Below are positions 3,201-22,400 of a stretch of 37,202 nucleotides of DNA, one piece after another. Source of the stretch: Thermodesulfobacteriota bacterium (lineage in GTDB: Bacteria; DASVDK01); assembly GCA_036381125.1 (NCBI GenBank), contig DASVDK010000273.1, forward strand, positions 1 to 37,202, given 5' to 3'. Positions within the stretch are counted from its first letter, which is position 1; each line of letters begins with the position of its first letter. The position numbers and the translations under genes were made by a program. Below the pieces are notes generated by a model. The model did not search any database, was not told where the DNA came from, and saw nothing but the letters and a program-made list of their open reading frames with translations.

Positions 3201-3215
3201 GAGCCACCATCGATC

Positions 3216-4493
3216 ATGTCCGACGCCGCATCGCGAGAGCCCGGGCAGCCGACCAGGTCCCGTCCCTGCCGCCGCCGCTGTGTCGCGTGCGGCCGCCCGT
3301 CCGCCGAGGTCCGCCGCCTCGTGTCGAACGAACGGTCGCGCATCTGCACCGACTGCCTCGACGCGTTCAACGCCGCGGTCCTCGTGGCCGACCAGCCCCA
3401 GACCGAGTCGTCCCGCCGCGAGCTGCCGACGCCGGCCCGCATCAAGGCCATTCTCGACGACTACGTGATCGGCCAGGAGAAGGCCAAGAAGATCCTCTCC
3501 GTGGCGGTCTACAACCACTACAAGAAGATCGAGTCGAACGCGGTCAACCGCGACGTCGAGCTCAAGAAGTCGAACATCCTCCTCCTCGGGCCCACCGGCA
3601 CCGGCAAGACGCTCCTGGCCCAGGTGCTGGCGCGGGTGCTGCGCGTGCCGTTCGCGATGGCCGACGCCACGGCCCTCACCGAGGCGGGCTACGTCGGCGA
3701 GGACGTGGAGAACATCCTCCTCAACCTCGTCATGGCGGCCGACTACAACATCGAGCGGGCCCAGAAGGGGATCGTCTACATCGACGAGATCGACAAGATC
3801 GCCCGCAAGAGCGAGAACCCCTCCATCACCCGCGACGTCTCGGGCGAGGGGGTGCAGCAGGCCCTCCTCAAGATCATCGAGGGCACCGTCGCCAACGTCC
3901 CGGTCACGGGGGGGCGCAAGCACCCGCAGGAGGAGGTCATCCGGGTCGACACCACGAACATCCTCTTCATCTGCGGGGGGGCCTTCGACGGCCTCGAGAC
4001 GATCATCGAGCGGCGCCTGGCCACCCGTGGGGCGATCGGGTTCGGCGCCGAGACAGCGCCCAGGACCAGGCGGGACGGCTCGCTCATGCCGCTCGTCCAG
4101 CCGGAGGACCTCTTCAAGTACGGCATGATCCCGGAGTTCGTCGGCCGGCTCCCGGTGACGACCGTCCTCCACGAGCTGGACGAGGAGGCACTCGTTCGCA
4201 TCCTCAAGGAGCCGAAGAACGCGCTGGTCAAGCAGTATCAACGCCTCTTCAAGCTCGACGGGGTGAGCCTCGAGTTCACGGACGCGTCGCTGCGGGCGGT
4301 GGCGCGCGAGGCGATCCGCCGCCGCGCCGGGGCCCGCGGCCTCTCGGCCATCCTCGAGGAGGCGATGCTCGACCTGATGTACGACCTGCCGTCGCGCCGC
4401 GACGTCAAGGGCTGCCGCATCGACGAGGCGGTCGTCCTCGGGCAGGGGACGCCGGAGTTCACCTACCGGGCCCGCAGGCGCAGGACGGCGTAA
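3216..4493 (+). CDS. clpX: ATP-dependent Clp protease ATP-binding subunit ClpX (paralog 2)
   Basis: CVAC...CTDC zinc finger, [43 protein letters not shown] loop; AGGAG upstream. Confidence 0.95.
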
Positions 4494-7644: not shown

Positions 7645-8895
7645 ATGCCCGCCCCCGACACGGCCCTGGCCGAACGGCTCTTCGGGACGCTCCGCGAGCG
7701 GAGCCGCGACACCCCGGGCGTCACGCGCCCGTCCTACGGGCCGGGCGAGCAGATGGCGCACGACCTGGTGCGCGGCGAGGCCGAGGCGCTCGGCCTCGAG
7801 GTCGCCGTCGACGCGGCCGGCAACCTCTACGCGACGATGCCGGGTCGCGACCGGCAGGCGCCGGCCTTCGTCGTCGGCTCGCACCTCGACACCGTTCCCC
7901 ACGGCGGCAACTACGACGGCGCGGCCGGCGTCGTGGCCGGCCTCTCGGCCCTGGCCGGCCTGCGGCGGGCGGGCGTCACGCCGCCGCGCGACGTCACGGT
8001 GATGGGGATACGGGCCGAGGAATCGACCTGGTTCAACGCGTCCTACATCGGCAGCCGCGCGGCGCTCGGGCTGCTCGCGCCCGAGGAGCTCGACACCGTC
8101 CGGCGATCCGACACCGGCCGCTCGCTCGGCGAGCACCTCGCGGAGGCCGGCTTCGACCCGGCGGCCATTGCGCGCGGGGCGGCCCACCTCGACCCGGCCC
8201 GGGTCCACGGCTTCATCGAGGTCCACATCGAGCAGGGCCCGATCCTGGTCGAGCGAGGCATCCCGGCGGCCGTCGTGACCGGCATACGGGGCGCCTTCCG
8301 CTACCGCGAGGCGAGGGCCATCGGGCAGTGGGCCCACTCGGGCGCCGTGCCGCGCGCCCACCGGCGCGACGCCGTCGTCGCCGTCTCGGAGTTCGTGGCG
8401 GCCCTCGACGCGGCGTGGGGCGACCTCGAGGCCGGCGGGCACGACCTCGTCGTCACGGTCGGCCAGCTCTTCACCGACCCGCGCCTGCACGCGTTCAGCA
8501 AGGTCCCGGGCGAGGTCCGCTTCTGCATCGACGCCCGGAGCCTCTCCACCGCCACGCTCGACACGGTGCGCGAGACGGTGCATCGGCTCGCCGCGGAGAT
8601 CGGCGATCGGCGCCGCGTCCGCTTCGAGCTGGGGCCGATCACCGGGACCAGGCCGGCGGTCCTCGACGCCGGCCTTCGGGGCCGGCTGGCCGACGCCGCC
8701 GGGCGGCTCGGCATCCCCACCATCGAGATGGCGAGCGGCGCGGGGCACGACGCCGTCACCTTCGCCAACGCCGGCATCCCCACGGCGATGCTCTTCATCC
8801 GGAACCGGGGCGGCAGCCACAACCCCGAGGAGGCCATGGACCTGGCCGACTTCGAGCGGGCGGCCTCCATCCTCGCCGCCGTCCTCGCCGGGTAG
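7645..8895 (+). CDS. M20 family Zn-dependent amidohydrolase (allantoate amidohydrolase / N-carbamoyl-amino acid hydrolase type)
   Basis: GSHLDTVPHGGNYDG, AEES, EVHIEQGP, AHSG, SGAGHDA, GGSHNPEE. Confidence 0.9.
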   Translation: MPAPDTALAERLFGTLRERSRDTPGVTRPSYGPGEQMAHDLVRGEAEALGLEVAVDAAGNLYATMPGRDRQAPAFVVGSHLDTVPHGGNYDGAAGVVAGLSALAGLRRAGVTPPRDVTVMGIRAEESTWFNASYIGSRAALGLLAPEELDTVRRSDTGRSLGEHLAEAGFDPAAIARGAAHLDPARVHGFIEVHIEQGPILVERGIPAAVVTGIRGAFRYREARAIGQWAHSGAVPRAHRRDAVVAVSEFVAALDAAWGDLEAGGHDLVVTVGQLFTDPRLHAFSKVPGEVRFCIDARSLSTATLDTVRETVHRLAAEIGDRRRVRFELGPITGTRPAVLDAGLRGRLADAAGRLGIPTIEMASGAGHDAVTFANAGIPTAMLFIRNRGGSHNPEEAMDLADFERAASILAAVLAG

Positions 8896-8901
8896 CGTCA
8901 G

Positions 8902-8951
8902 GGGGTCAGGTCTTTCCATTTTCCAGACCGGCAAACGTTGGGGCCTGACCC
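8902..8951. repeat. REP-like 25-bp unit (family A) between convergent genes
   Basis: 8902-8926 GGGGTCAGGTCTTTCCATTTTCCAG is the exact reverse complement of 22376-22400; a partial inverted copy (GGCCTGACCC) follows at about 8942-8951. Confidence 0.8.
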
Positions 8952-8987
8952 GACTCGTTTGCCGGCGCGTCGGCCGGGCGCCGCACG

Positions 8988-9701
8988 TCAGCGGTGTCCC
9001 GTGAAGAGCCGGTCCGGGCCGACCCCGAAGCGGCCGAGCAGCTCGAGGGGCCAGGCGAGGTTGCCGACCTCCGAGGCGACGTAGGCGCCGCTGCCGAGCG
9101 CCAGCCGCGCCCCCGCGGCGAGCCACCGTTCGAGGGCCCGCTCGTGGGGCAGCCTCGTCCGCCCGGACAGCTCGAGCGCCACGCCCTCCCGGGCCGCCGT
9201 CCGGCCGATGCGGTCGAGGTGCCGGTCGTCGAACAGCGCGGGGGCGTTTGGCCGCAGGGCGCTCGGCAGGAGCGTGGGGTGGGCGAGGAGGTCGATCGGC
9301 TCCTCCTCCATCGCCTCGCAGAGCCGGTCGACGACCGCCTGCACGATCTCCTCGGGCGCGACCTCCGGGCGGCCCGGGTCGGCCATCGAGACGGTATGCG
9401 GCCCGATGCGCAGCGTGTGGAGCCCTCCCACGACGTAGTCGAGGCGGCGCTCCACGGACGGGGAGAGCCGGAACCGTTCGCCCAGCTCGACCTCGAGCGA
9501 GCGGAGCACCGGGAAGTCGGCCAGCTCGTCGAGGTGCTCGTGGATGCGCGCGTCGGTCGACAGGACGCTGTCGCCCCCAGCGTGGTCGGCGACGCCGATC
9601 CGCACGCCCCGGCGGTCGGCCAGCTCGACCAGCTCCGGCAGCTCGAGGCCGCCGGAGACGGCCGAGTGGACGTGGAGGTCGACGAGCCGGTCGACGCTCA
9701 T
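8988..9701 (-). CDS. PHP-domain (histidinol-phosphatase/YcdX-like) protein, metal site partly degenerate
   Basis: DLHVHS, ADHA, LEVE, GGLH, LAHP; last motif reads GSGAY instead of GSDAH. The ATG at 9701 overlaps the upstream TGA. Confidence 0.78.
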   Translation of the reverse strand: MSVDRLVDLHVHSAVSGGLELPELVELADRRGVRIGVADHAGGDSVLSTDARIHEHLDELADFPVLRSLEVELGERFRLSPSVERRLDYVVGGLHTLRIGPHTVSMADPGRPEVAPEEIVQAVVDRLCEAMEEEPIDLLAHPTLLPSALRPNAPALFDDRHLDRIGRTAAREGVALELSGRTRLPHERALERWLAAGARLALGSGAYVASEVGNLAWPLELLGRFGVGPDRLFTGHR

Positions 9702-9856
9702 GCCGGGCGGCCCCGCTCGGCCGGCCGGACGATGCGGGCGACGAGCGCCTCGCCCACCGCGGTCTCCGGCGGGTCGGCCGGCTCCGCGACGGCCCAACGC
9801 CAGCGCCCGGTCACCTGCGACGCGAAGCGGTCGACGTGGAGCATGAGGAGCCGCAT
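9698..9856 (-). pseudogene. 52-aa ORF resembling the N-terminus of stand-alone archaeal-type threonyl-tRNA synthetase editing-domain proteins, apparently truncated
   Basis: Translates to MRLLMLHVDRFASQVTGRWRWAVAEPADPPETAVGEALVARIVRPAERGRPA; the MRLL.lH.D...EP....v.EALV pattern is recalled from that family; ATGA overlap with the PHP gene. Confidence 0.45.
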
Positions 9857-10013
9857 CCCGAGACGCTAGCGCCGGGAGCCTGCCGCGGGCAAGGTCTCGG
9901 CGAGGTGGTCGGCCGCCCGTCTGGCAGCCCTCGTTGGCCGTCCCGGCGAGGCGTGCACGACGACCTCGGCGTCGGGCAGCGGCGGAGGCCGTCGGCCGCT
10001 CCCGGGACGCAGT

Positions 10014-10077
10014 GCGCTTGCCGCCGGCGGGCAGCGTCTCGCGAGCCACCACGTCGAAGGGAGAGGAGAAGAGGCGC
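10014..10077 (-). pseudogene. Remnant copy of part of the 10842-11252 gene
   Basis: 64-nt direct repeat of 11067-11130 with 5 mismatches; encodes RLFSSPFDVVARETLPAGGKR. Confidence 0.7.
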
Positions 10078-10474
10078 CGCCTGCCGCAGTCAGGCGTCGC
10101 CGAAACGAGCCCCGGAATGCGGCAGGGTGCGGCGTGGGGTACCCGCGGTGTCTGGGGCCGACCGCGAGGTTTGGAATGGCAGTTGAGGCATCCAGTACCG
10201 CATCAAGCTCGCCGTCTGTCGAGAGTCAGACGAAGTGGCCTGTCAAGGGCCTTTTTCGTTTGCGAGCCAGTCGACGAAGCGACCATAGTCCAGGCCAATA
10301 GGCACGTTTGGGCAGGGTGCGGCCGGTGGGGCAATGGCGAAGGGCCAGAAGGGCGAGTCGCAGCCAGGCGTAGCGCTTGAGATCATCGGGCCGCGAGCTT
10401 CAGAAGAAGATCGATCCTGGACGTAGTTCCAGCAATTCGACACCTAGAGGGACAACGCGACCTGGGGACAAGCC

Positions 10475-10672
10475 ATGGCGGCAGCCACAGAAGCAGCTGC
10501 GGCGATCCACTTCGCGCTCGTGCTTTTCCTGCTCTGGGTGCTCATCTTCTGGATGTGGCCGAGCCTACGGCTGGATATGGGACAGATTTCGTTTCCGAAG
10601 CACGCTCCCGGCAGCCACGCCTCCGCTCGGCCGCCCCGTGCCGCACGCCGCGACGCCCGGAACGGCCCTTGA
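10475..10672 (+). CDS. Short hypothetical membrane peptide or gene fragment in a lower-GC patch
   Basis: One strong TM segment (IHFALVLFLLWVLIFWMW); atypical codon usage; GGGGA upstream. Confidence 0.3.
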   Translation: MAAATEAAAAIHFALVLFLLWVLIFWMWPSLRLDMGQISFPKHAPGSHASARPPRAARRDARNGP

Positions 10673-10841
10673 TGGCGGTATGGCGTCCGGCTCAACTTGG
10701 CCGCCCTGCACGAGGAGGCGTCGCCCCACCCGTCCGAGGCGGGGAGCCGCTGGTGCTGGCAGGGCTACGAGCGGCGCGAGGACCGGCGGGACCTCGGCCG
10801 CGGGTGGGGTGGCGCCGGGGAACAAGGCCGTTCCCGCGCCA

Positions 10842-11252
10842 TCAGAAAGGCGGGCCGTCCCAGCCCTTGGCGCGGTCCTCCATCTCGAAGGTCTGGAAGG
10901 CGCGGTTGAAGGAGCCGGCGCTCTCCTCCTGATGGAGGCGCCAGACCTCGTGCAGGCGGATCTCGACGGTCAGGTGGGTGCCGGGCGCGAGGCGGACGAC
11001 CTCCCTGGCGGCAGGGCCGAGCCTCCCCTTCAGGCGAATGCCGTACTCGCCGGGGGGGAGCGCGAAGCGCTTGCCGCCGGCGGGCAGCGTCTCGCGCGCC
11101 ACCAGGTCGAAGGGCGACGAGAACAGGCGCAGCTCCGCGGCGGGCAGGTGAAAGAGCCCGCTGGTGAAGCGGATGGTGAGCCCCTCGTGGCCGGGCGGCG
11201 CCGGCGCCTCGGTGACCGCGATCGTGGGGCGTTCGTCCGTGGCGATGGTCAT
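10842..11252 (-). CDS. Hypothetical protein (beta-rich)
   Basis: High GC3; 6 nt downstream of the previous gene; the synonymous-biased remnant copy at 10014-10077 supports this reading frame. Confidence 0.72.
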   Translation of the reverse strand: MTIATDERPTIAVTEAPAPPGHEGLTIRFTSGLFHLPAAELRLFSSPFDLVARETLPAGGKRFALPPGEYGIRLKGRLGPAAREVVRLAPGTHLTVEIRLHEVWRLHQEESAGSFNRAFQTFEMEDRAKGWDGPPF

Positions 11253-11258
11253 GGCGCG

Positions 11259-11801
11259 CTACCCCGCCTGCGCCACGCTCCACCGCGTCGGCGGCGGCAG
11301 CGGTAGGCCCTTCGCCTTGCGCTCGCGGATGGGCCCGCTGTGGCCCAGCGCCTTCACCGCGGCGATGTCGGCCTTCACCCGGTCGGCGAGCGCGGGGTAG
11401 CCGAAGCCGCGCAGGAGGCGCTCCGCCTCGGTGAGCCCGATGTTGTCCACCGCGCGAGCCGACTCGACCCAGAGCACGGCGGCCCGGGCGGCCGCCATGG
11501 CGCGTGGGTGCGTCACGAAGCGGCGCGCCTCGGCGACGAGGTCCCGGTACGACTCGACCGCGACCGCCTTCGCGCCGACACGCTCCACCTCCGCGGTGAA
11601 CCGGTCGAAGAAGGCGGCGGTCCAGAGGCGCTCGTCGGCGAGGACCCGCCTTGCCGTCTCGTTGCCCGCCTTCGCGCGCAGGACGAGCCGCGCGGCGTCG
11701 AGCCGCTCGCCGGCCGTCTTCGCCGCCCGCATCCGCGCGAGGGCCGACCTGAGATCCGGGGGGCCGAACCAGGCGTCCGCGATCTCGCTCCAGACTCCCA
11801 T
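11259..11801 (-). CDS. Hypothetical protein (helical)
   Basis: GGGAGG RBS, high GC3, tight operon spacing. Confidence 0.72.
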   Translation of the reverse strand: MGVWSEIADAWFGPPDLRSALARMRAAKTAGERLDAARLVLRAKAGNETARRVLADERLWTAAFFDRFTAEVERVGAKAVAVESYRDLVAEARRFVTHPRAMAAARAAVLWVESARAVDNIGLTEAERLLRGFGYPALADRVKADIAAVKALGHSGPIRERKAKGLPLPPPTRWSVAQAG

Positions 11802-11811
11802 GCCGGCCTCC

Positions 11812-12204
11812 CTACGCCCCCGCGCCGGCGCGGCTCGCCACGACGACGACGAGGAGGGCGAAGCCGATGACCTGGAGGCCGAGGAGCGCCGCCTGGGCGC
11901 CGACCTGATGGGCGAGGACGCGCCGCTTGGCCTTGCTCATGCCGAAGGCGACCACGTAGACCACCAGGGCCGCCACGACGAGGAGCCCGATCGTCCCGCC
12001 GAGAACGCCCCCGGTGAAGCCGGCGAGGGCGAGGAGGGCGAGCAGCAGGGTGCCTCCGAGCGTGGCGTAGTGCGCGGCCGCCTGGTAGCTGCCGTCGTAG
12101 ATCATGGTCACCTGGCCCTTGACGGTGTAGGCGGCCACCAGGGCGAGGCTCACCAGGAAGACCCCCGGCACGAGCGCCAGCAGGAACGCGAACAGACTCT
12201 CCAT
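11812..12204 (-). CDS. Hypothetical membrane protein (about 4 TM helices)
   Basis: Four hydrophobic segments; GGAGGA RBS; 16 nt after the FrhB-like stop. Confidence 0.75.
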   Translation of the reverse strand: MESLFAFLLALVPGVFLVSLALVAAYTVKGQVTMIYDGSYQAAAHYATLGGTLLLALLALAGFTGGVLGGTIGLLVVAALVVYVVAFGMSKAKRRVLAHQVGAQAALLGLQVIGFALLVVVVASRAGAGA

Positions 12205-12220
12205 CTCTCGGATCCTCCGC

Positions 12221-13393
12221 CTACGACCGGATGACGACGGGAAGCCCGGCCGCCTTCATGGCCGTCTCCCGCTCGGCGCCGCGCTCCTTCTTGAAGAGCA
12301 CGGCGAGCTGGAACTCCTGCTCGGCGCTGATGACCGGCAGGCGGGTGACCGCCTTGAGCCCCCAGCCGAGCGCCTTGAGGGTGAGGTCGGTTGCGTCCAT
12401 GGGGGCGCCGCTCATCGGGACCCTCTGGGGGTCGGCGAGGAGCCCCTTCTCGGCGGCCATCCGGAAGAGCCGCTGCCCGGCCTCGGACCGGAGGATCACC
12501 GAGAAGCGCCCGGCCCCGGCCCCGAGGCGGCCGAAGCTGATGTCGGCCAGCTCGGCGGTGGGGTCGACGCAGGTGATGCAGGCGTCGGGCGCGTAGTGCG
12601 AGACGACCGAGGCCGGCATCGTCTTCGTCTTCCCGCCGGTCGTCTCGACCCGGTAGAAGAGCGTGGAGTCGAGGCCGTGCCCGATGTGCCTCACCTCGTC
12701 GAGCGAGATGCCCACCCGCTCCCGGAGCATCGTCTCGAGCGCCTGCCGCCTCAGGACGCCGAAGCAGTAGTGCCCGATGATCAGCCCGATCTTCGACTCG
12801 AACTTCTTGTCGGGCATGTACTGCAGCTTGCGCCACGCCTCGGTGACGCACGGCGGCCCGATGAGCCCGACCCGGTCGAGGCCGTGGTAGTCCACCGCCT
12901 CGGTGAGGGCGGGCGTCACGTCGTCGAAGCCGATCAGCTCGTTCTCGCGCGCCTCGTTGAGGACGTCGATCCTGTGGAGGTCCTCGGGCCGGTCGACGAG
13001 CACGCCGGAGCGGTTGCCGAGCCGGTTGCGCCCCGTCCCGATGCCGACCCAGGCGCGCACCATCCCGGTCTCGAGGGCAAGGCGGGCGAGGGCGGCAATC
13101 TCGTTCTGCCGCACCGTCTGGACCTCCCGGTACCGACCGAAGACCGGGTCCTTCACGTCGACGCCCGGCTGCTCCGGACCGAAGACGAAGCTCTGCATGT
13201 CGGCCATCGGCAGGAAGTTCTTGGGGCAGGCGGTGAAGCAGGCGCCGCAGTCCCGGCAGGCCTGGAGCGGCCCGGGCCCGACGTTGTCCACCCACTCGAT
13301 GGCGTCGTACGAGCAGGACGCGAGGCAGGTCCCGCAGTGGCAGCAGAGGTCGTGCTCGACCTGCTGGAACAGCTCCTTCAGGCCAATGGCCAT
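12221..13393 (-). CDS. Coenzyme F420 hydrogenase/dehydrogenase beta-subunit (FrhB/FdhB) family protein with N-terminal 2x[4Fe-4S] ferredoxin domain
   Basis: CCHCGTCLASC and CRDCGACFTACP ferredoxin motifs; FrhB C-domain cysteines in GPPC, IGHYC and CITC.D.TAELADISFG. Confidence 0.82.
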   Translation of the reverse strand: MAIGLKELFQQVEHDLCCHCGTCLASCSYDAIEWVDNVGPGPLQACRDCGACFTACPKNFLPMADMQSFVFGPEQPGVDVKDPVFGRYREVQTVRQNEIAALARLALETGMVRAWVGIGTGRNRLGNRSGVLVDRPEDLHRIDVLNEARENELIGFDDVTPALTEAVDYHGLDRVGLIGPPCVTEAWRKLQYMPDKKFESKIGLIIGHYCFGVLRRQALETMLRERVGISLDEVRHIGHGLDSTLFYRVETTGGKTKTMPASVVSHYAPDACITCVDPTAELADISFGRLGAGAGRFSVILRSEAGQRLFRMAAEKGLLADPQRVPMSGAPMDATDLTLKALGWGLKAVTRLPVISAEQEFQLAVLFKKERGAERETAMKAAGLPVVIRS

Positions 13394-13477
13394 GGCGTCC
13401 CGCCCCCGCGTGTTAGAATGGGCCAGCCACCAGCGGATCGGGCCCTACCAGAGCGACGTCACATGGCAGTTCACGAC

Positions 13478-13529
13478 AATTGGTAGGACCAGTAGCGCCA
13501 GGTTAGGCCAGGTCCTGGAGGCTTGTCAA
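13478..13529 (-). promoter_or_regulatory. Sigma70 promoter of the FrhB-like operon with FadR-type operator
   Basis: Minus TTGACA (13529-13524), 18 nt, TAACCT (13505-13500). Operator AATTGGTAGGACCAGT at 13478-13493 lies at the predicted start site and matches the PdhR/LldR-type AATTGGT-N3-ACCAATT box. Confidence 0.72.
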
Positions 13530-13558
13530 GGGGCAACGGCGTGGAAGGACGGGACGGC

Positions 13559-14341
13559 GTGACCACGACAACACCGACAACATCTCGAACACCCGCGCAG
13601 CCCGAGCGCCGCGGAAAGGTGACCGAGGAGATCGTCCGCGCGATCCAGTCGCAGATCAGTCGCGGCGAGCTGAAGCCGGGCGACCAGCTCCCGCCCGAGC
13701 GGCAGCTCGCGAGCCGCTTCCACGCGAGCCGGGGCTCGATCCGCGAGGCGCTGCGCGCGCTCGAGCTGTCGGGGCTCATCCACTCCCGCCAGGGGGGCGG
13801 CAACTACGTCGCCAGGAGCCTGCCGTCCGCGCTCACCGTGCCCCTCGGCCACTACCTCGAGCGGCAGCGGCACGCGCTCGTGGACCTCTACGAGGCGCGC
13901 GAGATGCTCGAGCCGCGGCTCGCCTTCCTCGCCGCCGAGCGGGCCACGCGGGAGGACATCGAGCGGCTGCGCCAGGCGCTCGAGCGCCAGGAGCGGGACC
14001 TCGACAGCCACGACGCCGCCACCGCGTACGACGCCGATCGGGCCTTCCACCAGGCCATCGCCGAGGCGGCCGGCAACCAGACCTTCATCAAGCTGCACAA
14101 CTACCTCTCGGACCTCGTCTCCGAGAGCCGCCGCGAAGCGGTCGACAGCGCCTCGCGGCGGGAGCAGGCGGTCGTCGACCACCGCCACATCTTCGAGGCG
14201 ATCGCCGGCGGGGACGGCCCCGCGGCGTCGGCGGCCATGCTGCAGCACCTCAAGACGGTCAAGGAGATCCTCGTCGACGCGCTGACCGCCTACCAGCAGG
14301 CGCTGGCCCGACTGCCGGGCGCGCCGACCGAGCAGGGCTGA
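13559..14341 (+). CDS. GntR family transcriptional regulator, FadR subfamily (PdhR/LldR/GlcC-like)
   Basis: wHTH GELKPGDQLPPERQLA..F..SRGSIREAL..LE..GLI.SRQGGGNYV; FCD domain with EAREMLE, DRAFHQAIAEAAGN and DHRHIFEAI; GTG start at 13559. Confidence 0.93.
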   Translation: MTTTTPTTSRTPAQPERRGKVTEEIVRAIQSQISRGELKPGDQLPPERQLASRFHASRGSIREALRALELSGLIHSRQGGGNYVARSLPSALTVPLGHYLERQRHALVDLYEAREMLEPRLAFLAAERATREDIERLRQALERQERDLDSHDAATAYDADRAFHQAIAEAAGNQTFIKLHNYLSDLVSESRREAVDSASRREQAVVDHRHIFEAIAGGDGPAASAAMLQHLKTVKEILVDALTAYQQALARLPGAPTEQG

Positions 14342-14434
14342 CCGCCGCCCCTCCTCCGCTCCCCGACGCCTCCGTGATCCGCCCGCGCGCGGCCGCGCCG
14401 CGCGCCCTCGACCAGGCGGCCCGGCCGAACCTGC

Positions 14435-14503
14435 TTGACAGGTTTGCCGCGAGGGCACTAGAGTAGCCGCATATTGGACCAATAGCGTATTGGTCCAACC
14501 ATT
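14435..14503 (+). promoter_or_regulatory. Sigma70 promoter of the oxidoreductase operon with FadR-type operator
   Basis: TTGACA 14435-14440, 18 nt, TAGAGT 14459-14464. TATTGGTCCAACCATT (TGGT-N3-ACCA) at 14488-14503 overlaps the inverted repeat TTGGACCAATA-GCG-TATTGGTCCAA (14474-14498). Confidence 0.75.
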
Positions 14504-14518
14504 CCTTCCGGGGGCGCC

Positions 14519-15151
14519 ATGCAGGAACCGGAGATCCTCGAGATCAACGTCTGGACGCGGGGCGTCGTGATGGACAAGGAGGGGCGCGACGTCACGTTCG
14601 CCCTGGCCCGCGCCGCCCAGGAGGAGGGGAAGTTCGTCCAGGCGTTCGACAACTACGTCGACCAGCCCGACCGGGTGAACGTCCCCATGCGCAAGTACGC
14701 GCGGATCTCCGCCGTGGAGATCGAGGACAAGTACGTCTACGAGAACCACGAGCCGAACATCGTCGTCCTGGTCGAGGAGAGCCTCCTCAAGGGCATGAAC
14801 GTGCTGCGCGGCATGCGCCCCGGCGGCACGCTGATCGTCAACAGCCACCGCCCGATCGCCGACCTCGTCAAGTTCCTGCCGCCGCACGCGCCCGGGACGC
14901 TGCGCAGCTTCGCCGTGATCCACGCGGAGCGCTTCGCCAGGCGCGTCATGGCCGACTTCCTCGGCGCCGAGGGGGCGAGCGTCCGGGGCGGCCTCGGCAG
15001 GGGGATCGCCGGCCCGATCATCGGCGCCACGGCGCGCGTCGGCGGCTTCGTGTCGCTCGACGCGGTCAGGAAGGTCGTGTCCGACCCCGCGGCGGCCGAG
15101 CGCGGGTGGGAGTCGGTCCAGATCCGCGAACTGGGCGCTGCGACCGTCTAG
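14519..15151 (+). CDS. 2-oxoacid:ferredoxin oxidoreductase gamma-type subunit, equivalent to the N-terminal part of the oxalate oxidoreductase delta subunit
   Basis: VWTRGVVMDK..RD, NYVDQPDRV.VP, KYVYEN, VLVEESLLKG and GIAGPIIGA closely follow my recollection of Moorella OOR delta; lacks the GRGGQG loop of CoA-dependent PorC. Confidence 0.85.
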   Translation: MQEPEILEINVWTRGVVMDKEGRDVTFALARAAQEEGKFVQAFDNYVDQPDRVNVPMRKYARISAVEIEDKYVYENHEPNIVVLVEESLLKGMNVLRGMRPGGTLIVNSHRPIADLVKFLPPHAPGTLRSFAVIHAERFARRVMADFLGAEGASVRGGLGRGIAGPIIGATARVGGFVSLDAVRKVVSDPAAAERGWESVQIRELGAATV

Positions 15152-15239
15152 GGCGCGCCGACCGAACCAGGCAGTCCGGCCGGCACGGCCGCGCCGGCTG
15201 CGGAGATGGCACGGTCGGCAGAGCTGTCACGAGGTCACG

Positions 15240-15593
15240 ATGCCGTACGCCTACACGCCGAAGCTCATCCACATCCCGCCCGAGAAGGACGTGCCGTTCG
15301 GCATGATCGTGCCGGCCCCCGAGGTGAGCGGGGAGCAGCCGGGCATGATCACCGGCAACTGGCGGCAGAAGCGGCCGGTGTTCGACCCGATGCGCTGCAC
15401 GCAGTGCCGCTCGTGCGAGATGCTCTGCCCGGACGCCTGCATCTCGATCGACGAGAAGGGGATCGTCGATTCCGACATGAAGTACTGCAAGGGCTGCGGC
15501 GTCTGCGCCTTCGAGTGTCGCGAGGGGGCCATCGTGATGGTCCCAGAACTCGACTTCGAGGACGGCGTCGTCCGTCTGGAGACCGTCTTCTAG
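15240..15593 (+). CDS. 2x[4Fe-4S] ferredoxin-like delta subunit of the oxidoreductase
   Basis: TGNWR..RP, CTQCRSCEMLCPD, YCKGCGVCAFEC, VPELDFED; GAGG RBS. Confidence 0.9.
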   Translation: MPYAYTPKLIHIPPEKDVPFGMIVPAPEVSGEQPGMITGNWRQKRPVFDPMRCTQCRSCEMLCPDACISIDEKGIVDSDMKYCKGCGVCAFECREGAIVMVPELDFEDGVVRLETVF

Positions 15594-15610
15594 GAGCCGG
15601 GAGCACGCCG

Positions 15611-18104
<2,494 letters not shown>

Positions 18105-18139
18105 GATTCAGGCCCGCGCCCCCGCGGCCGGCGGAGTCC

Positions 18140-18166
18140 TTGACAACGCGCGTCGACTCGTATAGT
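18140..18166 (+). promoter_or_regulatory. Possible sigma70 promoter
   Basis: TTGACA 18140-18145 and TATAGT 18161-18166, but the spacer is only 15 nt. Confidence 0.4.
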
Positions 18167-18207
18167 CAGGCGGCACGCGGCCGGAAGCCGGATCCCCGGG
18201 AGGACAC

Positions 18208-18786
18208 ATGCTTGCGGGCTGCCGCCACATCTGCGTTGCCTGGGCCGCCATCGGGCTCCTGGCGCTCGCCACCGGCCTCGCGGCAGAGCAGGGCGATCTC
18301 GTGCGCGTCGGCGCCTTCGCCCTGCTGGCCTTCGGCACGCTCCGCCTCGCCATGGCGAGCGACGACTTCGAGGCGATCGGCGCCCGGCTCGCGGCGCGCC
18401 CGGCCGAGGCGCCGCCGAAGCCCGCCGTCCCGCGCGCCTTCTGGTCGCGCCCGGCGCCCTACGTCCTGCTGCCCCTCATCGGGTTCATCGTGCTCGTGGG
18501 CCGCGTCCTCTGGCGGCCTCCCCTCGGCAACGACGCCCGTTACCTGATCACCGGCATCATGGCGGCCGCGCTCACCGTCACGGTCGTCTACCTCGTCCTC
18601 CTCGCCGTCGAGGGGGCGCACGTCGCCGCGGCCGCGCCCGCCCAGGGGGCGCTCGAGGACCCCGCGCCGCCCGGTCCACGCGTACAGGGCGACGAGGGGC
18701 TTTCCGCCATCGGCGCCCTCGACACCGCCCGGTTCACGCGCGACGTGCTCGACGTCCACGGCCAGGGCGGCGCCCCTCGCCCCTGA
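18208..18786 (+). CDS. Hypothetical membrane protein (about 4 TM helices)
   Basis: GGAGGA RBS, four hydrophobic segments, high GC3. Confidence 0.65.
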   Translation: MLAGCRHICVAWAAIGLLALATGLAAEQGDLVRVGAFALLAFGTLRLAMASDDFEAIGARLAARPAEAPPKPAVPRAFWSRPAPYVLLPLIGFIVLVGRVLWRPPLGNDARYLITGIMAAALTVTVVYLVLLAVEGAHVAAAAPAQGALEDPAPPGPRVQGDEGLSAIGALDTARFTRDVLDVHGQGGAPRP

Positions 18787-18808
18787 CGGCACCCCTTCCG
18801 ATCGGCTG

Positions 18809-18823
18809 AACTGGTCGGACCAC
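18809..18823. promoter_or_regulatory. Distal FadR-type operator candidate
   Basis: AACTGGTCGGACCAC (TGGT-N3-ACCA) in the intergenic region upstream of tctC. Confidence 0.5.
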
Positions 18824-19025
18824 CGCGACCGCGCGCACGAATCGGCTCGGGTTTTCGCGCACCTGGACGACGCCCGGCAGTCGCGCGCGCCGCCGTGTGA
18901 CCTCCGCCACGGAAGCGCGCCCGAATCCAGCGCGGCTCGGCCCGACGCCGTCCCGTCGCGCCGTTGCGTGCGGGTCCGGGCCGCGCCAAGCGAGAAATGC
19001 CTTTATATCTTCAGTAGAATAACGC

Positions 19026-19069
19026 TTGACACACCCCTGGGTGCGTCGCACAGTCGTGGTAGGACCAGT
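19026..19069 (+). promoter_or_regulatory. Promoter of the tctCBA operon with FadR-type operator
   Basis: TTGACA 19026-19031, 17 nt, CACAGT 19049-19054, AT-rich sequence upstream. TGGTAGGACCAGT at 19057-19069 is identical to 13481-13493. Confidence 0.7.
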
Positions 19070-19218
19070 GGGGCAGGGGCCTACGCCCAATCGCCGGCAC
19101 CTCGTCGTCCGGCCGCAATAAATCATTGTCATGCGCCGTCTTACGACCATCCTGCGGCGCGGACGGGTTCACCCCGGCCGGCGTCACGGTATGTTGAAAC
19201 ACCGTTAGGAGGTCTGCT

Positions 19219-20205
19219 ATGGCACGTCTCCGGGGTCAGGTGGTCGCGGCAATGCTCGCGTCCGCGTTCGTCCTGGCGCCCTTCGCGGCGCACGCGGCGT
19301 GGGAGCCGCAGAAGCCCATCGAGTTCATCATCCCGGCGGGGACGGGCGGCGGCGCGGACCAGATGGCCCGCCTCATCACCGGCATCGCCGAGAAGTACAA
19401 CCTCTCGCCGCGGCCCGTCGTGGCCATCAACAAATCGGGCGGCGCCGGCGCCGAGGGCTTCCTCTACGTCAAGGGCAAGAAGGGGGATGCCCACACCATC
19501 ATCATCACCCTGTCGAACCTCTTCACGACCCCCCTCAGCACCGGCGTTCCCTTCAACTGGAAGGACCTCACCCCGGTCGCCCGCCTGGCGCTCGACGAGT
19601 TCATCCTCTGGGTCAACGCGAGCACGCCCTACAAGAGCGCCAGGGAGTACATCACCGCGGTCAAGGAGAAGGGCCCCATGAAGATGGGGGGCACCGGCAC
19701 GGCGCAGGAGGATCAGATCATCACGCTCCTGCTCCAGCAGCGGACCGGCGCCAAGTTCACCTACGTGCCGTTCAAGGGGGGCGGCGAGGTCTGCGTGAAC
19801 CTCGTCGGCGGCCACGTCGACTCGACCGTCAACAACCCCATCGAGTGCGTGAGCCACTGGCGCGCGAACCCCTCGCGCGTGCGGCCGCTCGCCATCTTCG
19901 ACGAGGAGCGCAGCCAGGTCGGGGGCTGGACGGAGATCCCGACCATCAAGGAGGCGCTCGGGGCGGACATCAGCTACCTGATGCTCCGCGGCATCTTCGG
20001 ACCGCCCGACATGCCGAAGGAGGCCACGGAGTGGTACCAGGCCTTCCTGAAGAAGGTCATGGAGACGACCGAGTGGAAGGACTTCATGACCAAGGGGGCC
20101 TTCAAGCAGTCGTGGCTCACCGGCCCCGAGTTCGTGAAGTGGCTCGAGCAGACGGAGGCGCTCCACCGCGAGTTGATGGAGGCGGGAGGCCTGCTCAAGA
20201 AGTAG
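19219..20205 (+). CDS. tctC: Tripartite tricarboxylate transporter substrate-binding protein (TctC/Bug)
   Basis: Signal peptide ending AHA-A; P.KPIEFIIPAGTGGGAD..AR, NKSGGAG, YVPFKGGGE, GGHVD; AGGAGG RBS. Confidence 0.93.
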   Translation: MARLRGQVVAAMLASAFVLAPFAAHAAWEPQKPIEFIIPAGTGGGADQMARLITGIAEKYNLSPRPVVAINKSGGAGAEGFLYVKGKKGDAHTIIITLSNLFTTPLSTGVPFNWKDLTPVARLALDEFILWVNASTPYKSAREYITAVKEKGPMKMGGTGTAQEDQIITLLLQQRTGAKFTYVPFKGGGEVCVNLVGGHVDSTVNNPIECVSHWRANPSRVRPLAIFDEERSQVGGWTEIPTIKEALGADISYLMLRGIFGPPDMPKEATEWYQAFLKKVMETTEWKDFMTKGAFKQSWLTGPEFVKWLEQTEALHRELMEAGGLLKK

Positions 20206-20214
20206 CCCCACACC

Positions 20215-20252
20215 CCGCGCGCGGCGATGCCTCCGAGCGTCGCCGCGCGCGG
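20215..20252 (+). other. Strong 16-bp stem-loop between tctC and tctB (mRNA-stabilising or attenuating hairpin)
   Basis: CCGCGCGCGGCGATGC-CTCCGA-GCGTCGCCGCGCGCGG with one G-U pair and no U-tract. Confidence 0.6.
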
Positions 20253-20278
20253 ATCGTCGTCACCTGCCGGGGGGCCTC

Positions 20279-20740
20279 ATGCGGAAGGCGGATCTCGTCA
20301 CGGCGACCATCCTGCTGATCCTGGCCGCCGTCGTCGTCTGGGACTCCTACGAGCTGGGCATCGCATGGGGGCCCGGGGGGCCGGGCAGCGGGTTCTTCCC
20401 CTTCTGGATGGGGCTCATCATGATCGGCTGCTGCCTGGGGATCATCGCCCAGGCGCTGCGCCGGCCCGAGGGGAAGCCGTTCATCGCCCGCGAGGGGATC
20501 GCCCCGGTCCTCAAGGTCCTCGGGCCGGCGGTCGGCTTCGTGGTCCTCATCCAGTTCGTCGGCCTCTACGTGTCGGCCGCCGTCTACCTCGCCGTCTACA
20601 TGCGCTGGATCGGACGCCATTCCTGGCCCACCGTGGCCGGGGTGGCGCTCGCCTTCGCCGTGATCGCCTTCTTCGTCTTCGAGACCTGGTTCCTGGTGCC
20701 GATGCCCAAGGGCCCGGTCGAGTCGTGGCTGGGGTACTAG
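20279..20740 (+). CDS. tctB: Tripartite tricarboxylate transporter small permease TctB
   Basis: GPGSGFFPFW motif, 4 TM helices, VPMPKGP C-terminal motif. Confidence 0.9.
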   Translation: MRKADLVTATILLILAAVVVWDSYELGIAWGPGGPGSGFFPFWMGLIMIGCCLGIIAQALRRPEGKPFIAREGIAPVLKVLGPAVGFVVLIQFVGLYVSAAVYLAVYMRWIGRHSWPTVAGVALAFAVIAFFVFETWFLVPMPKGPVESWLGY

Positions 20741-20743
20741 ATC

Positions 20744-22264
20744 GTGGGATTCGAGAACCTGCTGCTCGGCTTCGAGGTCGCGCTTCATCCCTACAACCTC
20801 CTCATCGCCGCCGCCGGGATCGTCCTCGGTGTCATCGTGGGGGTGCTGCCGGGCCTCGGCGGCGCCAACGGCGTGGCGATCCTCCTGCCGCTCACGTTCT
20901 CGATGGAGCCGACCTCGGCCATCATCCTCCTGAGCTGCCTCTACTGGGGCGCCCTCTTCGGGGGCGCCATCACGTCGATCCTCTTCAACATCCCGGGCGA
21001 GCCCTGGTCGGTCGCCACGACCTTCGACGGCCACCCGATGGCCCGCAACGGTCAGGGAGGCCAGGCGCTCACCGCCGCCTTCTCCTCGTCGTTCATCGGC
21101 GCCTTCGCGGCGGTCGTCGTCATCACGTTCTTCGCGCCGCTCCTCGCCGATCTGGCCCTCAAGTTCGGGCCGGCCGAGTTCTTCGCCATCCAGTTCCTGA
21201 CGTTCTCGGCCTTCGTCGGACTCGGCGGCGGAAGCCCCCTCAAGACCCTCGTGGCCATCATGATCGGCTTCATCCTCGGCTCGGTCGGCCTCGACATGGT
21301 GACCGGCCGGCTGCGGCTCACGTTCGGCTTCACCGACCTCATGAAGGGGTTCGACTTCATCGTGGCCGTGATCGGCCTCTTCGGCATCGGCGAGATCCTC
21401 CTCACGATGGAGGAGGGGCTCTCCTTCCGCGGGGCGATCGCGAAGATCAGCCCGACCGTCGTCTGGCAGACCTGGAAGACCTTCCCCCGCTACGCCCGCA
21501 CGTTCGCGCGGGGGGCCTTCATCGGCTTCTGGATGGGCTTCAAGCCGGGCGGCGCCACGCCGGCCTCCTTCATGAGCTACGCCTTCGCCAAGCGCTTCTC
21601 GAAGCATCCGGAGCGCTTCGGCAAGGGGGAGATCGAGGGGGTGATCGCCCCCGAGACGGCGGCCCACGCCGCCGGTACGGCGGCGCTCCTGCCGATGATC
21701 ACGCTCGGCATCCCGGGCTCGCCGACCGCGGCGGTCATGCTCGGCGGCCTCATCATCTGGGGCCTCCAGCCGGGGCCGATGCTCTTCGTCGACCAGCCGC
21801 ACTTCGTCTGGGGCCTCATCGCGAGCATGTACACCGGGAACGTCATCGGCGTCCTCATGGTGCTCGCCTTCGTCCCCTTCTTCGCCTCGATCCTCAAGAT
21901 CCCCTTCGCCATCCTCACGCCGCTCATCGTGTCGATCTGCGCCATCGGGGCCTACTCCGTGCACAACAGCATGATCGACATCTGGTTCATGCTCGTCTTC
22001 GGCGTCGTGGGCTACGTCTTCAAGAAGCTCGACTACCCGCTCGCACCGCTCGTCCTCGCCCTGGTCCTCGGGGACATGGCCGAGGCCGCCCTGCGCCAGA
22101 GCCTCATCATGTCGGGCGGCTCGATCGGCATCTTCTTCACGCGGCCCATCTCCGGGACGATCATGTGGTTCGCGCTGTTCCTCTTCGCGATGCCGGTGAT
22201 CGGCCCCTGGTGGCGGAAGCTCAGAGGGAAGCCGGCCGCGAGCCTGCCGTCCGTCCCGCACTGA
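20744..22264 (+). CDS. tctA: Tripartite tricarboxylate transporter large permease TctA
   Basis: GVLPGLG, SILFNIPG, TTFDGHPMA, APETA, TLGIPGS, PLVLALVLG. Confidence 0.95.
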   Translation: MGFENLLLGFEVALHPYNLLIAAAGIVLGVIVGVLPGLGGANGVAILLPLTFSMEPTSAIILLSCLYWGALFGGAITSILFNIPGEPWSVATTFDGHPMARNGQGGQALTAAFSSSFIGAFAAVVVITFFAPLLADLALKFGPAEFFAIQFLTFSAFVGLGGGSPLKTLVAIMIGFILGSVGLDMVTGRLRLTFGFTDLMKGFDFIVAVIGLFGIGEILLTMEEGLSFRGAIAKISPTVVWQTWKTFPRYARTFARGAFIGFWMGFKPGGATPASFMSYAFAKRFSKHPERFGKGEIEGVIAPETAAHAAGTAALLPMITLGIPGSPTAAVMLGGLIIWGLQPGPMLFVDQPHFVWGLIASMYTGNVIGVLMVLAFVPFFASILKIPFAILTPLIVSICAIGAYSVHNSMIDIWFMLVFGVVGYVFKKLDYPLAPLVLALVLGDMAEAALRQSLIMSGGSIGIFFTRPISGTIMWFALFLFAMPVIGPWWRKLRGKPAASLPSVPH

Positions 22265-22325
22265 CGCGGATCACCGTGGCGTGAGGCGCGGGGGACGGGT
22301 CGGCTGCGGCCCGTGGAGAACGCGC

Positions 22326-22400
22326 CTGGAAAACGGAAAGGCCTGACCCCCTGGAAAACGGAAAGACCTGACCCCCTGGAAAATGGAAAGACCTGACCCC
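22326..22400. repeat. Tandem array of three 25-bp REP-like units (family A)
   Basis: CTGGAAAAYGGAAAGRCCTGACCCC at 22326, 22351 and 22376, head-to-tail with no spacers. Confidence 0.9.

Follow-up and report, generated by a model that had tools for sequence, protein, structure and literature searches.

Does a single stretch of bacterial DNA hold a jointly controlled system for the oxidation of oxalate, with an importer and an electron acceptor of its own? The question is raised by a contig of 37,202 nt (the window: DASVDK010000273.1 of assembly GCA_036381125.1, from a Thermodesulfobacteriota bacterium, GTDB DASVDK01). An island at 10842-22264 of this window had been predicted to be a regulon composed of an enzyme resembling oxalate oxidoreductase (OOR), an FrhB-like Fe-S flavoprotein and a tripartite tricarboxylate transporter (TTT), all under one FadR-type repressor. 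In our opinion, the parts of this idea deserve different degrees of trust. We hold it likely that regulator, enzyme and importer form the core of an oxalate regulon. The favoured reading as a whole, an oxalate-catabolic regulon in which the FrhB-like protein also has a place, is moderately probable. That the FrhB-like protein accepts the electrons of OOR is a tentative proposal, which we would sooner doubt than defend.

Of the three transcription units said to surround a FadR-subfamily gene, Pfam and NCBIfam confirm the FrhB-like gene, gamma, alpha and beta of the oxidoreductase and tctCBA, together with the regulator itself. Gene calls combined these two libraries with the GC content of codon positions, and long false open reading frames (ORFs) are frequent in the window because it is so rich in GC (0.68-0.78). 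One of them had hidden a gene. The oxidoreductase operon of the original prediction does encode an OOR-like enzyme, but it has four genes, and the separate gene for a ferredoxin subunit had been missed; it lies in another frame, beneath the stretch by which the long alpha ORF is falsely extended at its N-terminus, and is separate from gamma. The subunits, in terms of the domains of 2-oxoacid:ferredoxin oxidoreductases (OFOR) and with thiamine pyrophosphate (TPP) as cofactor, are as follows:

14519-15151, plus strand: OOR gamma-type subunit (OFOR domain III), 210 amino acids; NF045790 OxalOxreddelta, 242.4 bits against a cut-off of 230; PF01558
15240-15593, plus strand: OOR ferredoxin subunit (OFOR domain V), 117 amino acids, two [4Fe-4S] clusters; Fer4 families, two CxxCxxCxxxC motifs
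15611-16834, plus strand: OOR alpha; NF045791, 540.9 bits against a cut-off of 500
17019-18104, plus strand: OOR beta (TPP and proximal cluster); GTG start at 17019 behind AGGAGG; NF045792 is the best model

Alpha and gamma exceed the equivalog cut-offs, the best model of beta is that of OOR, and scores against the crystal structure 5C4I are about twice those against pyruvate:ferredoxin oxidoreductase (PFOR). For these reasons the island enzyme is, as judged from sequence, a genuine OOR ortholog, and this part of the prediction holds. In figures, alpha reaches 462.1 bits with 5c4i_A (E 1.7e-137) and 203.8 bits with the best PFOR alpha, while beta reaches 452.4 bits with 5c4i_C against 235.5 for PFOR beta; a genome-wide profile search returned alpha at 542 bits, again above the cut-off. 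Alpha is about 60% identical to the crystallised Moorella enzyme across the whole subunit, and alignment to 5c4i_A shows that YPIRP and the loop RTLDPPGDF are kept. Within these, Arg31 (in YPIRP) and Arg109, Asp116 and Phe117 (in the loop) are reportedly the oxalate-binding residues in the structures of Drennan and Ragsdale. The columns of Arg31, Arg109 and Phe117 are invariant in a seven-sequence alignment that includes paralogs; the two paralogs have Ala in place of Asp116. Beta carries a GDG...N TPP motif and candidate cluster cysteines at 52, 55, 80 and 253. CoA-independent conversion of oxalate to two CO2 is the predicted activity.

How far does the likeness to the known enzyme go? The OOR of Moorella thermoacetica reportedly turns oxalate into two CO2 and low-potential electrons, with no CoA. 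Like it (PDB 5C4I, 5EXD, 5EXE; NF045790-NF045792), the island enzyme is a TPP-dependent OFOR with the OOR-specific alpha motifs and three [4Fe-4S] sites. The two differ in that the Moorella delta subunit unites domains III and V in one chain (a model of 316 positions), whereas the island has separate gamma and ferredoxin genes; the gamma match to NF045790 is accordingly confined to model positions 8-207, the domain III part. The ferredoxin subunit is 58-60% identical to stand-alone ferredoxin genes of two Bacillota OOR loci (L013 and L014). Moorella is an acetogen, whereas the island host is an aerobe-type soil bacterium with eight COX1 matches, and the island transporter is a TTT system as against a major facilitator superfamily (MFS) antiporter.

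Could enzyme and importer act on an analogue such as oxamate, glyoxylate or mesoxalate, rather than on oxalate itself? We consider this improbable, even though several observations agree with it. Beta scores 475.8 bits on NF045792, below the cut-off of 590, if still ahead of PorB (308.6). In a tree of 25 alpha sequences (every fifth Acidobacteriota locus kept, the paralog on contig C5 as outgroup) the island alpha is a long separate branch, with an end branch of 0.72, nearest to Bacillota at 62%; it falls outside the clade with a GltD fusion (support 93), and the long branches leave its place not firm. The genome also encodes a second OOR-like OFOR, in which YPIRP is kept and the DF of the PGDFG loop has become AF, so the lineage does diversify this family, and the binding protein of the importer resembles none that has been solved. 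Nevertheless, two subunits exceed curated equivalog cut-offs, identity to the crystallised alpha is about 60% throughout with the 10-residue substrate loop unchanged, and orthologous loci carry an equivalog of the oxalate/formate antiporter OxlT. Oxalate therefore remains the substrate that we prefer.

The alpha-beta spacer is long (184 nt) and is filled by two copies of a 43-nt GC-rich hairpin repeat, at 16841-16883 and 16925-16967. The hairpin core has 14 copies in the genome, and related strains have a different, shorter spacer (joint 16838 to 16948).

What would control the enzyme? The regulator gene and its candidate sites are these:

13559-14341, plus strand: FCD-type (FadR-subfamily) GntR regulator; PF00392 69.9 bits, PF07729 110.1 bits
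13481-13491, no strand assigned: operator box 1, TGGTAGGACCA, between the divergent genes (a region of 165 bp), 88 nt from the ATG of the FrhB-like gene and 68 nt from the GTG of the GntR gene
13524-13529, minus strand: TTGACA near box 1, facing the FrhB-like gene
14435-14501, plus strand: OOR promoter and operators, with TTGACA-18-TAGAGT at 14435-14464, the only promoter that passes a consensus scan
14473-14483, plus strand: second palindrome at the OOR promoter, ATTGGACCAAT, between the -10 hexamer and the gamma start codon
14491-14501, plus strand: box 2, TGGTCCAACCA, 18 nt ahead of the gamma start codon
18812-18822, no strand assigned: operator box 3, TGGTCGGACCA, 26 nt past the stop codon of the doubtful ORF m192 and 245 bp upstream of box 4
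19026-19067, plus strand: tct promoter region, with TTGACA at 19026-19031 and box 4, TGGTAGGACCA, at 19057-19067, 152 nt upstream of tctC

The ORF of the regulator spans 13523-14341, and we put its start at the GTG at 13559, behind GGAAGGA. The original prediction placed a TTGACA promoter and a TGGT-N3-ACCA box at each of the three units. The boxes are indeed at all units, but there are four of them and not three, and of the promoters one passes the scan. The window contains TGGTNNNACCA (TGGT-N3-ACCA) in exact form at 13481, 14491, 18812 and 19057; each copy is intergenic, and none lies outside the island. Shuffled sequences contain 0.13 copies on average and one at most, and none of 100 shuffles reached four. 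The whole genome, 4,331,856 bases and 96% complete, has 16 exact copies; among the 12 outside the island, seven lie within coding frames and five look intergenic by rough ORF calls from the GC of third codon positions (GC3). Four exact boxes thus fall within 5.6 kb, in a part of the island rich in intergenic sequence, against 12 in the other 4.3 Mb.

At the promoter that passes the scan, the palindrome ATTGGACCAAT and box 2 both fall between -10 hexamer and start codon, where a roadblock repressor would sit. TTGACA itself occurs five times in the window against 2.63 expected, which alone is not significant (10 of 100 shuffles reach five); three of these hexamers, at 13524 (minus), 14435 (plus) and 19026 (plus), are 25-50 nt upstream of boxes 1, 2 and 4 and aimed at the FrhB-like gene, OOR and tctC. 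Boxes 1 and 4 are unaltered in contigs of related strains, with changes listed around box 1 at 13456, 13463, 13473, 13498 and 13516 and beside box 4 at 19037-19039. These changes belong to the 40 with the best support among nearly 2,000 differences, so this conservation is a weak footprint.

The same motif is found beyond this genome. Exact boxes precede the OOR clusters of L013 and L014 and of a Nitrospirota locus (L062), with flanks that are alike (gtatTGGTC..ACCAtt), and a site resembling the box 2 region, gtatTGGTCATACCAtt, is 5' of the OOR gamma genes in both Bacillota loci. In the OOR loci together there are five exact boxes in 65.8 kb of upstream zones and 19 in 1,434 kb elsewhere.

The regulator is therefore, as predicted, an FCD-type GntR protein with a family-typical palindrome at all units, and by its family and position it is the probable repressor of the island. 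It shares the winged helix-turn-helix and FCD domains of the PdhR/LldR/NanR/GlcC branch of FadR-type repressors, and likewise an inverted-repeat operator of the TGGT-N3-ACCA type, the family consensus. Unlike them, it scores below every equivalog cut-off (the nearest NCBIfam models, NanR, LldR and PdhR, give 106-148 bits) and adjoins OOR, so that its effector is presumably oxalate. To our knowledge, oxalate is not an effector of PdhR, LldR, NanR or GlcC.

Should the boxes be assigned to this protein? The alternative is that they are bound by a paralog 77% identical to it or by another FadR-type protein, or that they are partly chance palindromes, and that no single regulon exists. Several facts count against our assignment. 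TGGT-N3-ACCA is generic to the PdhR/LldR branch, and since tblastn finds about 19 GntR-type matches in the genome, the 77% paralog among them, another regulator could bind the island boxes. Boxes with one mismatch occur at the locus of that paralog on contig C5, and a box with the core TGGTAGGACCA stands on contig C97 near EamA and CCG-domain genes. The promoters at 13524 and 19026 fail the consensus scan and have weak -10 hexamers. No exact box occurs in 71 Acidobacteriota OOR loci, nor are boxes with one mismatch any denser ahead of the OOR genes there than elsewhere (0.20 against 0.28 per kb), from which it follows that an operator of this form is not conserved in those loci. We nevertheless think this alternative very unlikely. 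The concentration of exact boxes in the island speaks against it, seven of the 12 others being scored within coding frames. The island boxes adjoin the regulator gene, and a regulator gene beside its own operators is the commonest arrangement for FadR-type repressors. Furthermore, the motif recurs ahead of OOR clusters with their own GntR gene in two other phyla.

Two loci elsewhere in the genome deserve a description of their own. On contig C5 (about 8589-13760; locus L100) the 77% paralog of the regulator is followed by the second OOR-like OFOR, with alpha 42% and beta 45% identical to those of the island; its one-mismatch boxes are at 12734 and 13677. Nearby is a gene for an ABC binding protein of the Leu/Ile/Val type. 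The locus recurs in the same-genus genome G001 (C525; L094 and L098), and for this reason it is probably the native copy. The island regulator resembles this paralog more closely than it does the regulators linked to OOR in other phyla, to which it is about 40% identical. The C97 box, at 1669 of that contig (locus L101), has the core of boxes 1 and 4 and similar flanks (aatt left, agt right). It is apparently intergenic, adjoins an EamA transporter gene and a CCG-domain (GlcF/LutA-like) gene, and may mark a further member of the island regulon or of a sister regulon.

What does the transporter carry? Downstream of beta are the following:

18208-18786, plus strand: m192, a doubtful membrane-like ORF of 192 amino acids between OOR beta and tctC; GC3 0.92, about four hydrophobic segments
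19219-20205, plus strand: TctC-family solute-binding protein; PF03401 85.1 bits; N-terminal signal sequence, hydrophobic residues 6-27
20279-20740, plus strand: TctB small membrane subunit; PF07331 67.8 bits
20744-22264, plus strand: TctA large membrane subunit; PF01970 504.3 bits

All three subunits of a tripartite tricarboxylate transporter are present and above Pfam cut-offs, as in the systems with the binding proteins Bug, AdpC, TphC and MatC. The island TctC is distant from every solved TTT binding protein, with the best score, 117 bits, for 4x9t_A; its ligand contacts are for that reason not readable, and its genomic link is to OOR. In its own genome the best paralog is only 36% identical (tblastn gives 27 TctC-family and 26 TctA-family matches), whereas TctC and TctA are 62% identical to copies directly after OOR beta in two Nitrospirota loci (L062 and L076). 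The corresponding gene of L013 is an oxalate/formate antiporter equivalog (OxlT, TIGR04259, 450.5 against a cut-off of 335), so that tctCBA sits in the slot that an OxlT-type antiporter holds in other OOR loci. Given this positional orthology of OOR-linked TctCBA across two phyla, the TTT system probably imports oxalate. The predicted import thus gains from the recurrent adjacency, with the substrate assigned by position. It counts against this assignment that, in the literature searched, no TTT system has been linked with oxalate.

The ORF m192 was absent from the earlier gene list. It has no Pfam or NCBIfam match and no homolog elsewhere in the genome or in the 80 OOR loci described below; a TTGACA at 18140 precedes it and box 3 is just behind it.

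Is the combination new, as was originally claimed? A pattern scan of one genome per species gave at least 599 candidate stretches, of which at least 551 encode a relative of OOR alpha. Neighbours were counted by tblastn (E 1e-5, within 10 kb) in the best 80 of these at least 551 loci (L013-L092, from metagenome-assembled genomes of Acidobacteriota, Actinomycetota, Bacillota and Nitrospirota); 71 of the 80 are Acidobacteriota, so the counts are not independent. A homolog of the FCD-type regulator, 35-45% identical, is found beside OOR in 70 of the 80, and an OxlT-like MFS transporter in 57. A CDC48-type AAA ATPase gene is present in 61 (in one example TIGR01243 gives 822.5 against 802.65). In 73 loci a GltD-like NAD(P) flavoprotein (Fer4_20 and Pyr_redox_2) is fused to the PorD/OOR ferredoxin domain between gamma and alpha, as in L015 (8100-9932) and L078 (8003-9880); the C-terminus of the GltD-like protein is of PorD type. 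From this fusion, an OOR linked to NAD(P) is to be expected in bacteria of soil and peat. TctC, TctB and TctA together occur in the two Nitrospirota loci only.

The order gamma, ferredoxin, alpha, beta, transporter is that of the island. However, a search of the island and genome found no GltD-like fusion, CDC48-type ATPase or OxlT-like transporter in the island, which has the FrhB-like operon instead. The core of regulator, OOR and transporter is thus, in genomic terms, a widespread and modular locus, for which "undescribed" is too strong a word; indeed, PGAP already names such proteins OOR. In the literature searched, 34 papers mention the enzyme, and not one of these mentions Acidobacteria or F420 as well. 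As for the expected co-occurrence with OOR, it was found for the regulator and, in two loci, for this clade of TctC, and it was found in none of the 80 for the FrhB-like gene and its three companions, a result that the original prediction had itself named as refuting this part.

We now turn to these four genes, the leftward operon:

12221-13393, minus strand: FrhB-like Fe-S flavoprotein; PF04432 86.6 bits and Fer4 families; two 4Fe-4S motifs
11812-12204, minus strand: m130, small membrane protein of 130 amino acids; hydropathic stretches 1-30, 42-93 (two helices) and 101-130, about four helices
11259-11801, minus strand: u180, all-helical protein of 180 amino acids; weak TPR-like structural neighbours in the Atlas, TM 0.31-0.41
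10842-11252, minus strand: u136, 136 amino acids, last gene of the operon; GC3 0.96; predicted transthyretin/CarboxypepD_reg-like beta sandwich

The FrhB-like protein has an N-terminal ferredoxin domain for two [4Fe-4S] clusters, an FrhB-type reductase domain with a third four-Cys cluster, and a unique C-terminal helix pair (about 334-381). Twelve of its 13 cysteines form three sets of four: in a 40-sequence alignment Cys17, 20, 23, 27, 52, 56, 182, 210 and 275 are invariant, and 90% of the sequences or more also have Cys46, 49 and 272. The third set, in the FrhB_FdhB C-terminal domain, consists of 182, 210, 275 and 272. Pfam does not call the N-terminal FrhB_FdhB domain (PF04422), but HMMER aligns residues 86-320 to FrhB 3zfs_C, and the AlphaFold2 model (pLDDT 86.1, pTM 0.88) aligns over 316-416 columns to FrhB-type chains. 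In Foldseek the top match is the zeta subunit of an F420-reducing carbon monoxide dehydrogenase (CODH; 8riu_B, E 1.3e-23, TM 0.72) and the second is FwdI of an F420-reducing formylmethanofuran dehydrogenase from Ca. Ethanoperedens (8rja_E, TM 0.67), followed by FrhB, Fsr and plant HCAR.

As reported for them (PMC11493965), CODH zeta and FwdI wire CO2-forming, normally ferredoxin-linked enzymes to F420 via an N-terminal ferredoxin domain and a flavin site. The domain plan of these Ca. Ethanoperedens thermophilum proteins (8RIU, 8RJA) is common to the FrhB-like protein: a ferredoxin domain for two [4Fe-4S] clusters, an FrhB-type domain with cluster and flavin site, and a C-terminal extension. 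By analogy, the concept of a CO2-forming enzyme with its own flavin output module may be shared as well. There are differences too. Sequence identity is just 19-23%, the island host is a bacterium, the FrhB-like gene is in a separate, divergent operon with three partners, and its association with OOR is a candidate one.

F420 was considered as the acceptor of the FrhB-like protein and seems unlikely. Neither CofD nor CofE has a match in the genome, which is 96% complete, and its sole CofH-like gene is MqnC of the futalosine route (478.9 against a cut-off of 428.1).

How widespread is the FrhB-like protein? A word-indexed search returned seven clusters at 78-94% identity, after which identity falls to 26-27%. 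When 1.84 billion representatives were searched exhaustively with HMMER, 1,199 relatives emerged; only its own 50%-identity cluster is below E 1e-30, and the next relative outside it is 31% identical (E 7e-28). Across the domain, 40 other genomes gave no match above 26%, and the same-genus genome has none. A scan of genome contigs with the protein found no other context, while a scan of metagenome contigs with the alignment found just two 32% matches, to the ferredoxin domain only. The protein is thus an orphan clade by sequence, found in this lineage alone among the databases searched.

Its companions u136, u180 and m130 have no Pfam or NCBIfam match. Atlas structure matches of u136 are DUF1416/CarboxypepD_reg-type models (TM 0.57-0.64), and an Atlas feature search of u180 gave no usable match. 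The three are probably real genes, because 10 of 13 listed strain differences within them fall on third codon positions (four of four in u136, four of seven in u180).

Does this protein accept the electrons of OOR, possibly at the membrane, as originally proposed? The grounds, all of them, are an operator in common, the divergent arrangement of the genes, what the fold resembles, and analogy. Dedicated output modules do appear usual for OOR, since 73 of the 80 loci carry the GltD-like fusion, which the island lacks. The protein itself has no hydrophobic segment. A complex prediction of gamma, the ferredoxin subunit and the FrhB-like protein scored 0.00 (mark 0.32) and is evidence neither way. 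In sum, the proposal keeps its fold precedent and the operator, and gains no comparative support.

It has to be weighed against a serious competitor, to which we give a little less than an even chance: that the FrhB-like operon is independent of OOR. The FrhB-like/GntR pair would then be the older unit in this lineage, and OOR and tctCBA would be additions, either by insertion behind the regulator gene or by recruitment to the regulator's operator. OOR would feed the general ferredoxin pool, as in Moorella, and the FrhB-like protein would put its flavin and three clusters to another use, such as reducing a small molecule at the expense of ferredoxin, as HCAR and BciB do in F420-free organisms; HCAR is indeed among its fold matches. 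Much speaks for such independence and so against an acceptor role. Neither the FrhB-like gene nor any of u136, u180 and m130 stands beside OOR in a single one of the 80 loci (nor does m192), and no FrhB-family gene of any kind is found there at E 1e-5. Those Bacillota and Nitrospirota loci that like the island have a stand-alone ferredoxin subunit contain no dedicated acceptor gene. Since the FrhB-like protein has seven clusters at 78-94% and OOR alpha one close homolog, at 95%, with none other above 61%, relatives probably carry the FrhB-like gene without OOR. In one relative a contig of 2,826 bases seems to bear just the FrhB-like/GntR pair, which is a weak point, as P0006 (FrhB-like) and P0297 (GntR) were matched by this length only. 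The companions, a transthyretin-like sandwich, a weakly TPR-like helical protein and one with four membrane helices, have no redox motifs and give no redox clue. Box 1 might do no more than let the GntR gene regulate itself. Finally, the same-genus genome has neither OOR nor the FrhB-like gene, only the 42% OOR-like paralog, so the island as a whole is accessory.

Independence has to explain, however, why the FrhB-like operon has its divergent control region and an exact operator in common with the regulator of OOR, with box 1 downstream of a TTGACA aimed at the FrhB-like gene. It also has to explain why a ferredoxin domain is present at the N-terminus and why the closest folds are modules that take electrons from CO2-forming enzymes. 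Moreover, the closest strain keeps all units together: the whole island, including the FrhB-like operon, is found in pieces on contigs of a strain about 93-97% identical, from sequencing runs of two other studies.

Returning to the oxalate regulon that we favour, its operation can be pictured as follows. The FCD-type repressor would bind the TGGT-N3-ACCA operators at or just downstream of the three promoters, and oxalate or a close analogue would release it, so that the three units are de-repressed. TctCBA would bring oxalate in, in place of the OxlT antiporter of other OOR loci. The four-subunit OOR (gamma, ferredoxin, alpha and beta) would split it on TPP into two CO2 and send two electrons of low potential, by way of three [4Fe-4S] clusters, as far as the surface of the ferredoxin subunit. 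There the FrhB-like protein, with its ferredoxin domain, third cluster and flavin site, may be regarded as the likeliest protein to oxidise the OOR ferredoxin in a dedicated way and to pass electrons to a non-F420 acceptor. The identities of the genes, the rare boxes, and the positions of regulator and transporter that are conserved in other phyla are observations. We infer the binding of the boxes by the repressor, the effector, the substrate of the TTT system and, most of all, that the FrhB-like protein is linked to OOR.

A bolder version may be spelled out, which we consider rather unlikely. The FrhB-like protein, the four-helix membrane protein and the two other companions would be a bacterial counterpart of the archaeal F420-reducing CODH/Fwd modules, that is, a dedicated and possibly membrane-tethered outlet for OOR in an F420-free aerobe, with electrons passing to menaquinone or a pyridine nucleotide. 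Oxalate would enter by the first TTT system specific for a C2 dicarboxylate, and one oxalate-sensing FadR-type repressor would govern all.

What of the organism? It is a Bug-rich, aerobic soil organism, in a GTDB phylum with two species genomes only, both of the same genus. The usual oxc/frc route, said to be absent from the window, is not found in the whole genome either, at its 96% completeness: the best score for oxc is 240.9 bits against a cut-off of 739.4 and for frc 202 against 504.2, with 31 matches to CaiB/Frc-type CoA-transferase paralogs. That an oxygen-sensitive OOR would need low-oxygen conditions in a host with eight heme-copper oxidase matches is a difficulty for our reading.

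The flanks of the island have unrelated functions, with MobA-like, two ClpX-like, NUDIX, Na/Ca exchanger and M20 peptidase genes on the left and PIG-L, YdjC and glycosyltransferase genes on the right. The ClpX-like genes (zinc finger and AAA_2) are in tandem at 790-2202 and 3201-4493, with an ORF without family match between them. By codon-position GC the island is not distinguishable from its surroundings. Rfam gives no family match and ARAGORN detects no tRNA anywhere in the window, so no tRNA-linked integration signature was found there. The left edge is variable, because 697 bases between 10017 and 10715 are swapped for 749 others in a related strain. A 67-nt direct repeat, 91% identical (10014-10080 and 11067-11133), joins the interior of u136 to the ORF on its left. 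At the right edge, directly past the tctA stop codon (22325-22399), are three tandem copies of a 25-nt unit (CCTGGAAAACGGAAAG.CCTGACCC), whose 16-nt core is present 15 times in the genome, spread over 12 contigs; it resembles a dispersed REP-like element. In two runs, metagenome contigs cover the bin with this repeat far more deeply than the neighbouring bins.

Why does this island matter? The biochemistry of OOR is known from one acetogen only, yet at least 551 species genomes, most of them from soil and peat bacteria, encode a relative of alpha, and in the literature searched neither the import of oxalate nor the fate of the very low-potential electrons is described for these organisms. Three parts of the island can be put to the test, namely a FadR-type repressor that may respond to oxalate and has a defined operator, a putative TTT oxalate-binding protein and a possible alternative electron-output module. 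If the acceptor role is true, the principle of a "bolt-on FrhB reductase", known from archaeal CODH/Fwd, would be extended to an acceptor other than F420 and to the bacterial domain. Should it prove false, the island still illustrates how modules are swapped round a conserved OOR core: MFS for TTT transporters, a GltD-like output module or none, and the CDC48 ATPase present or absent.

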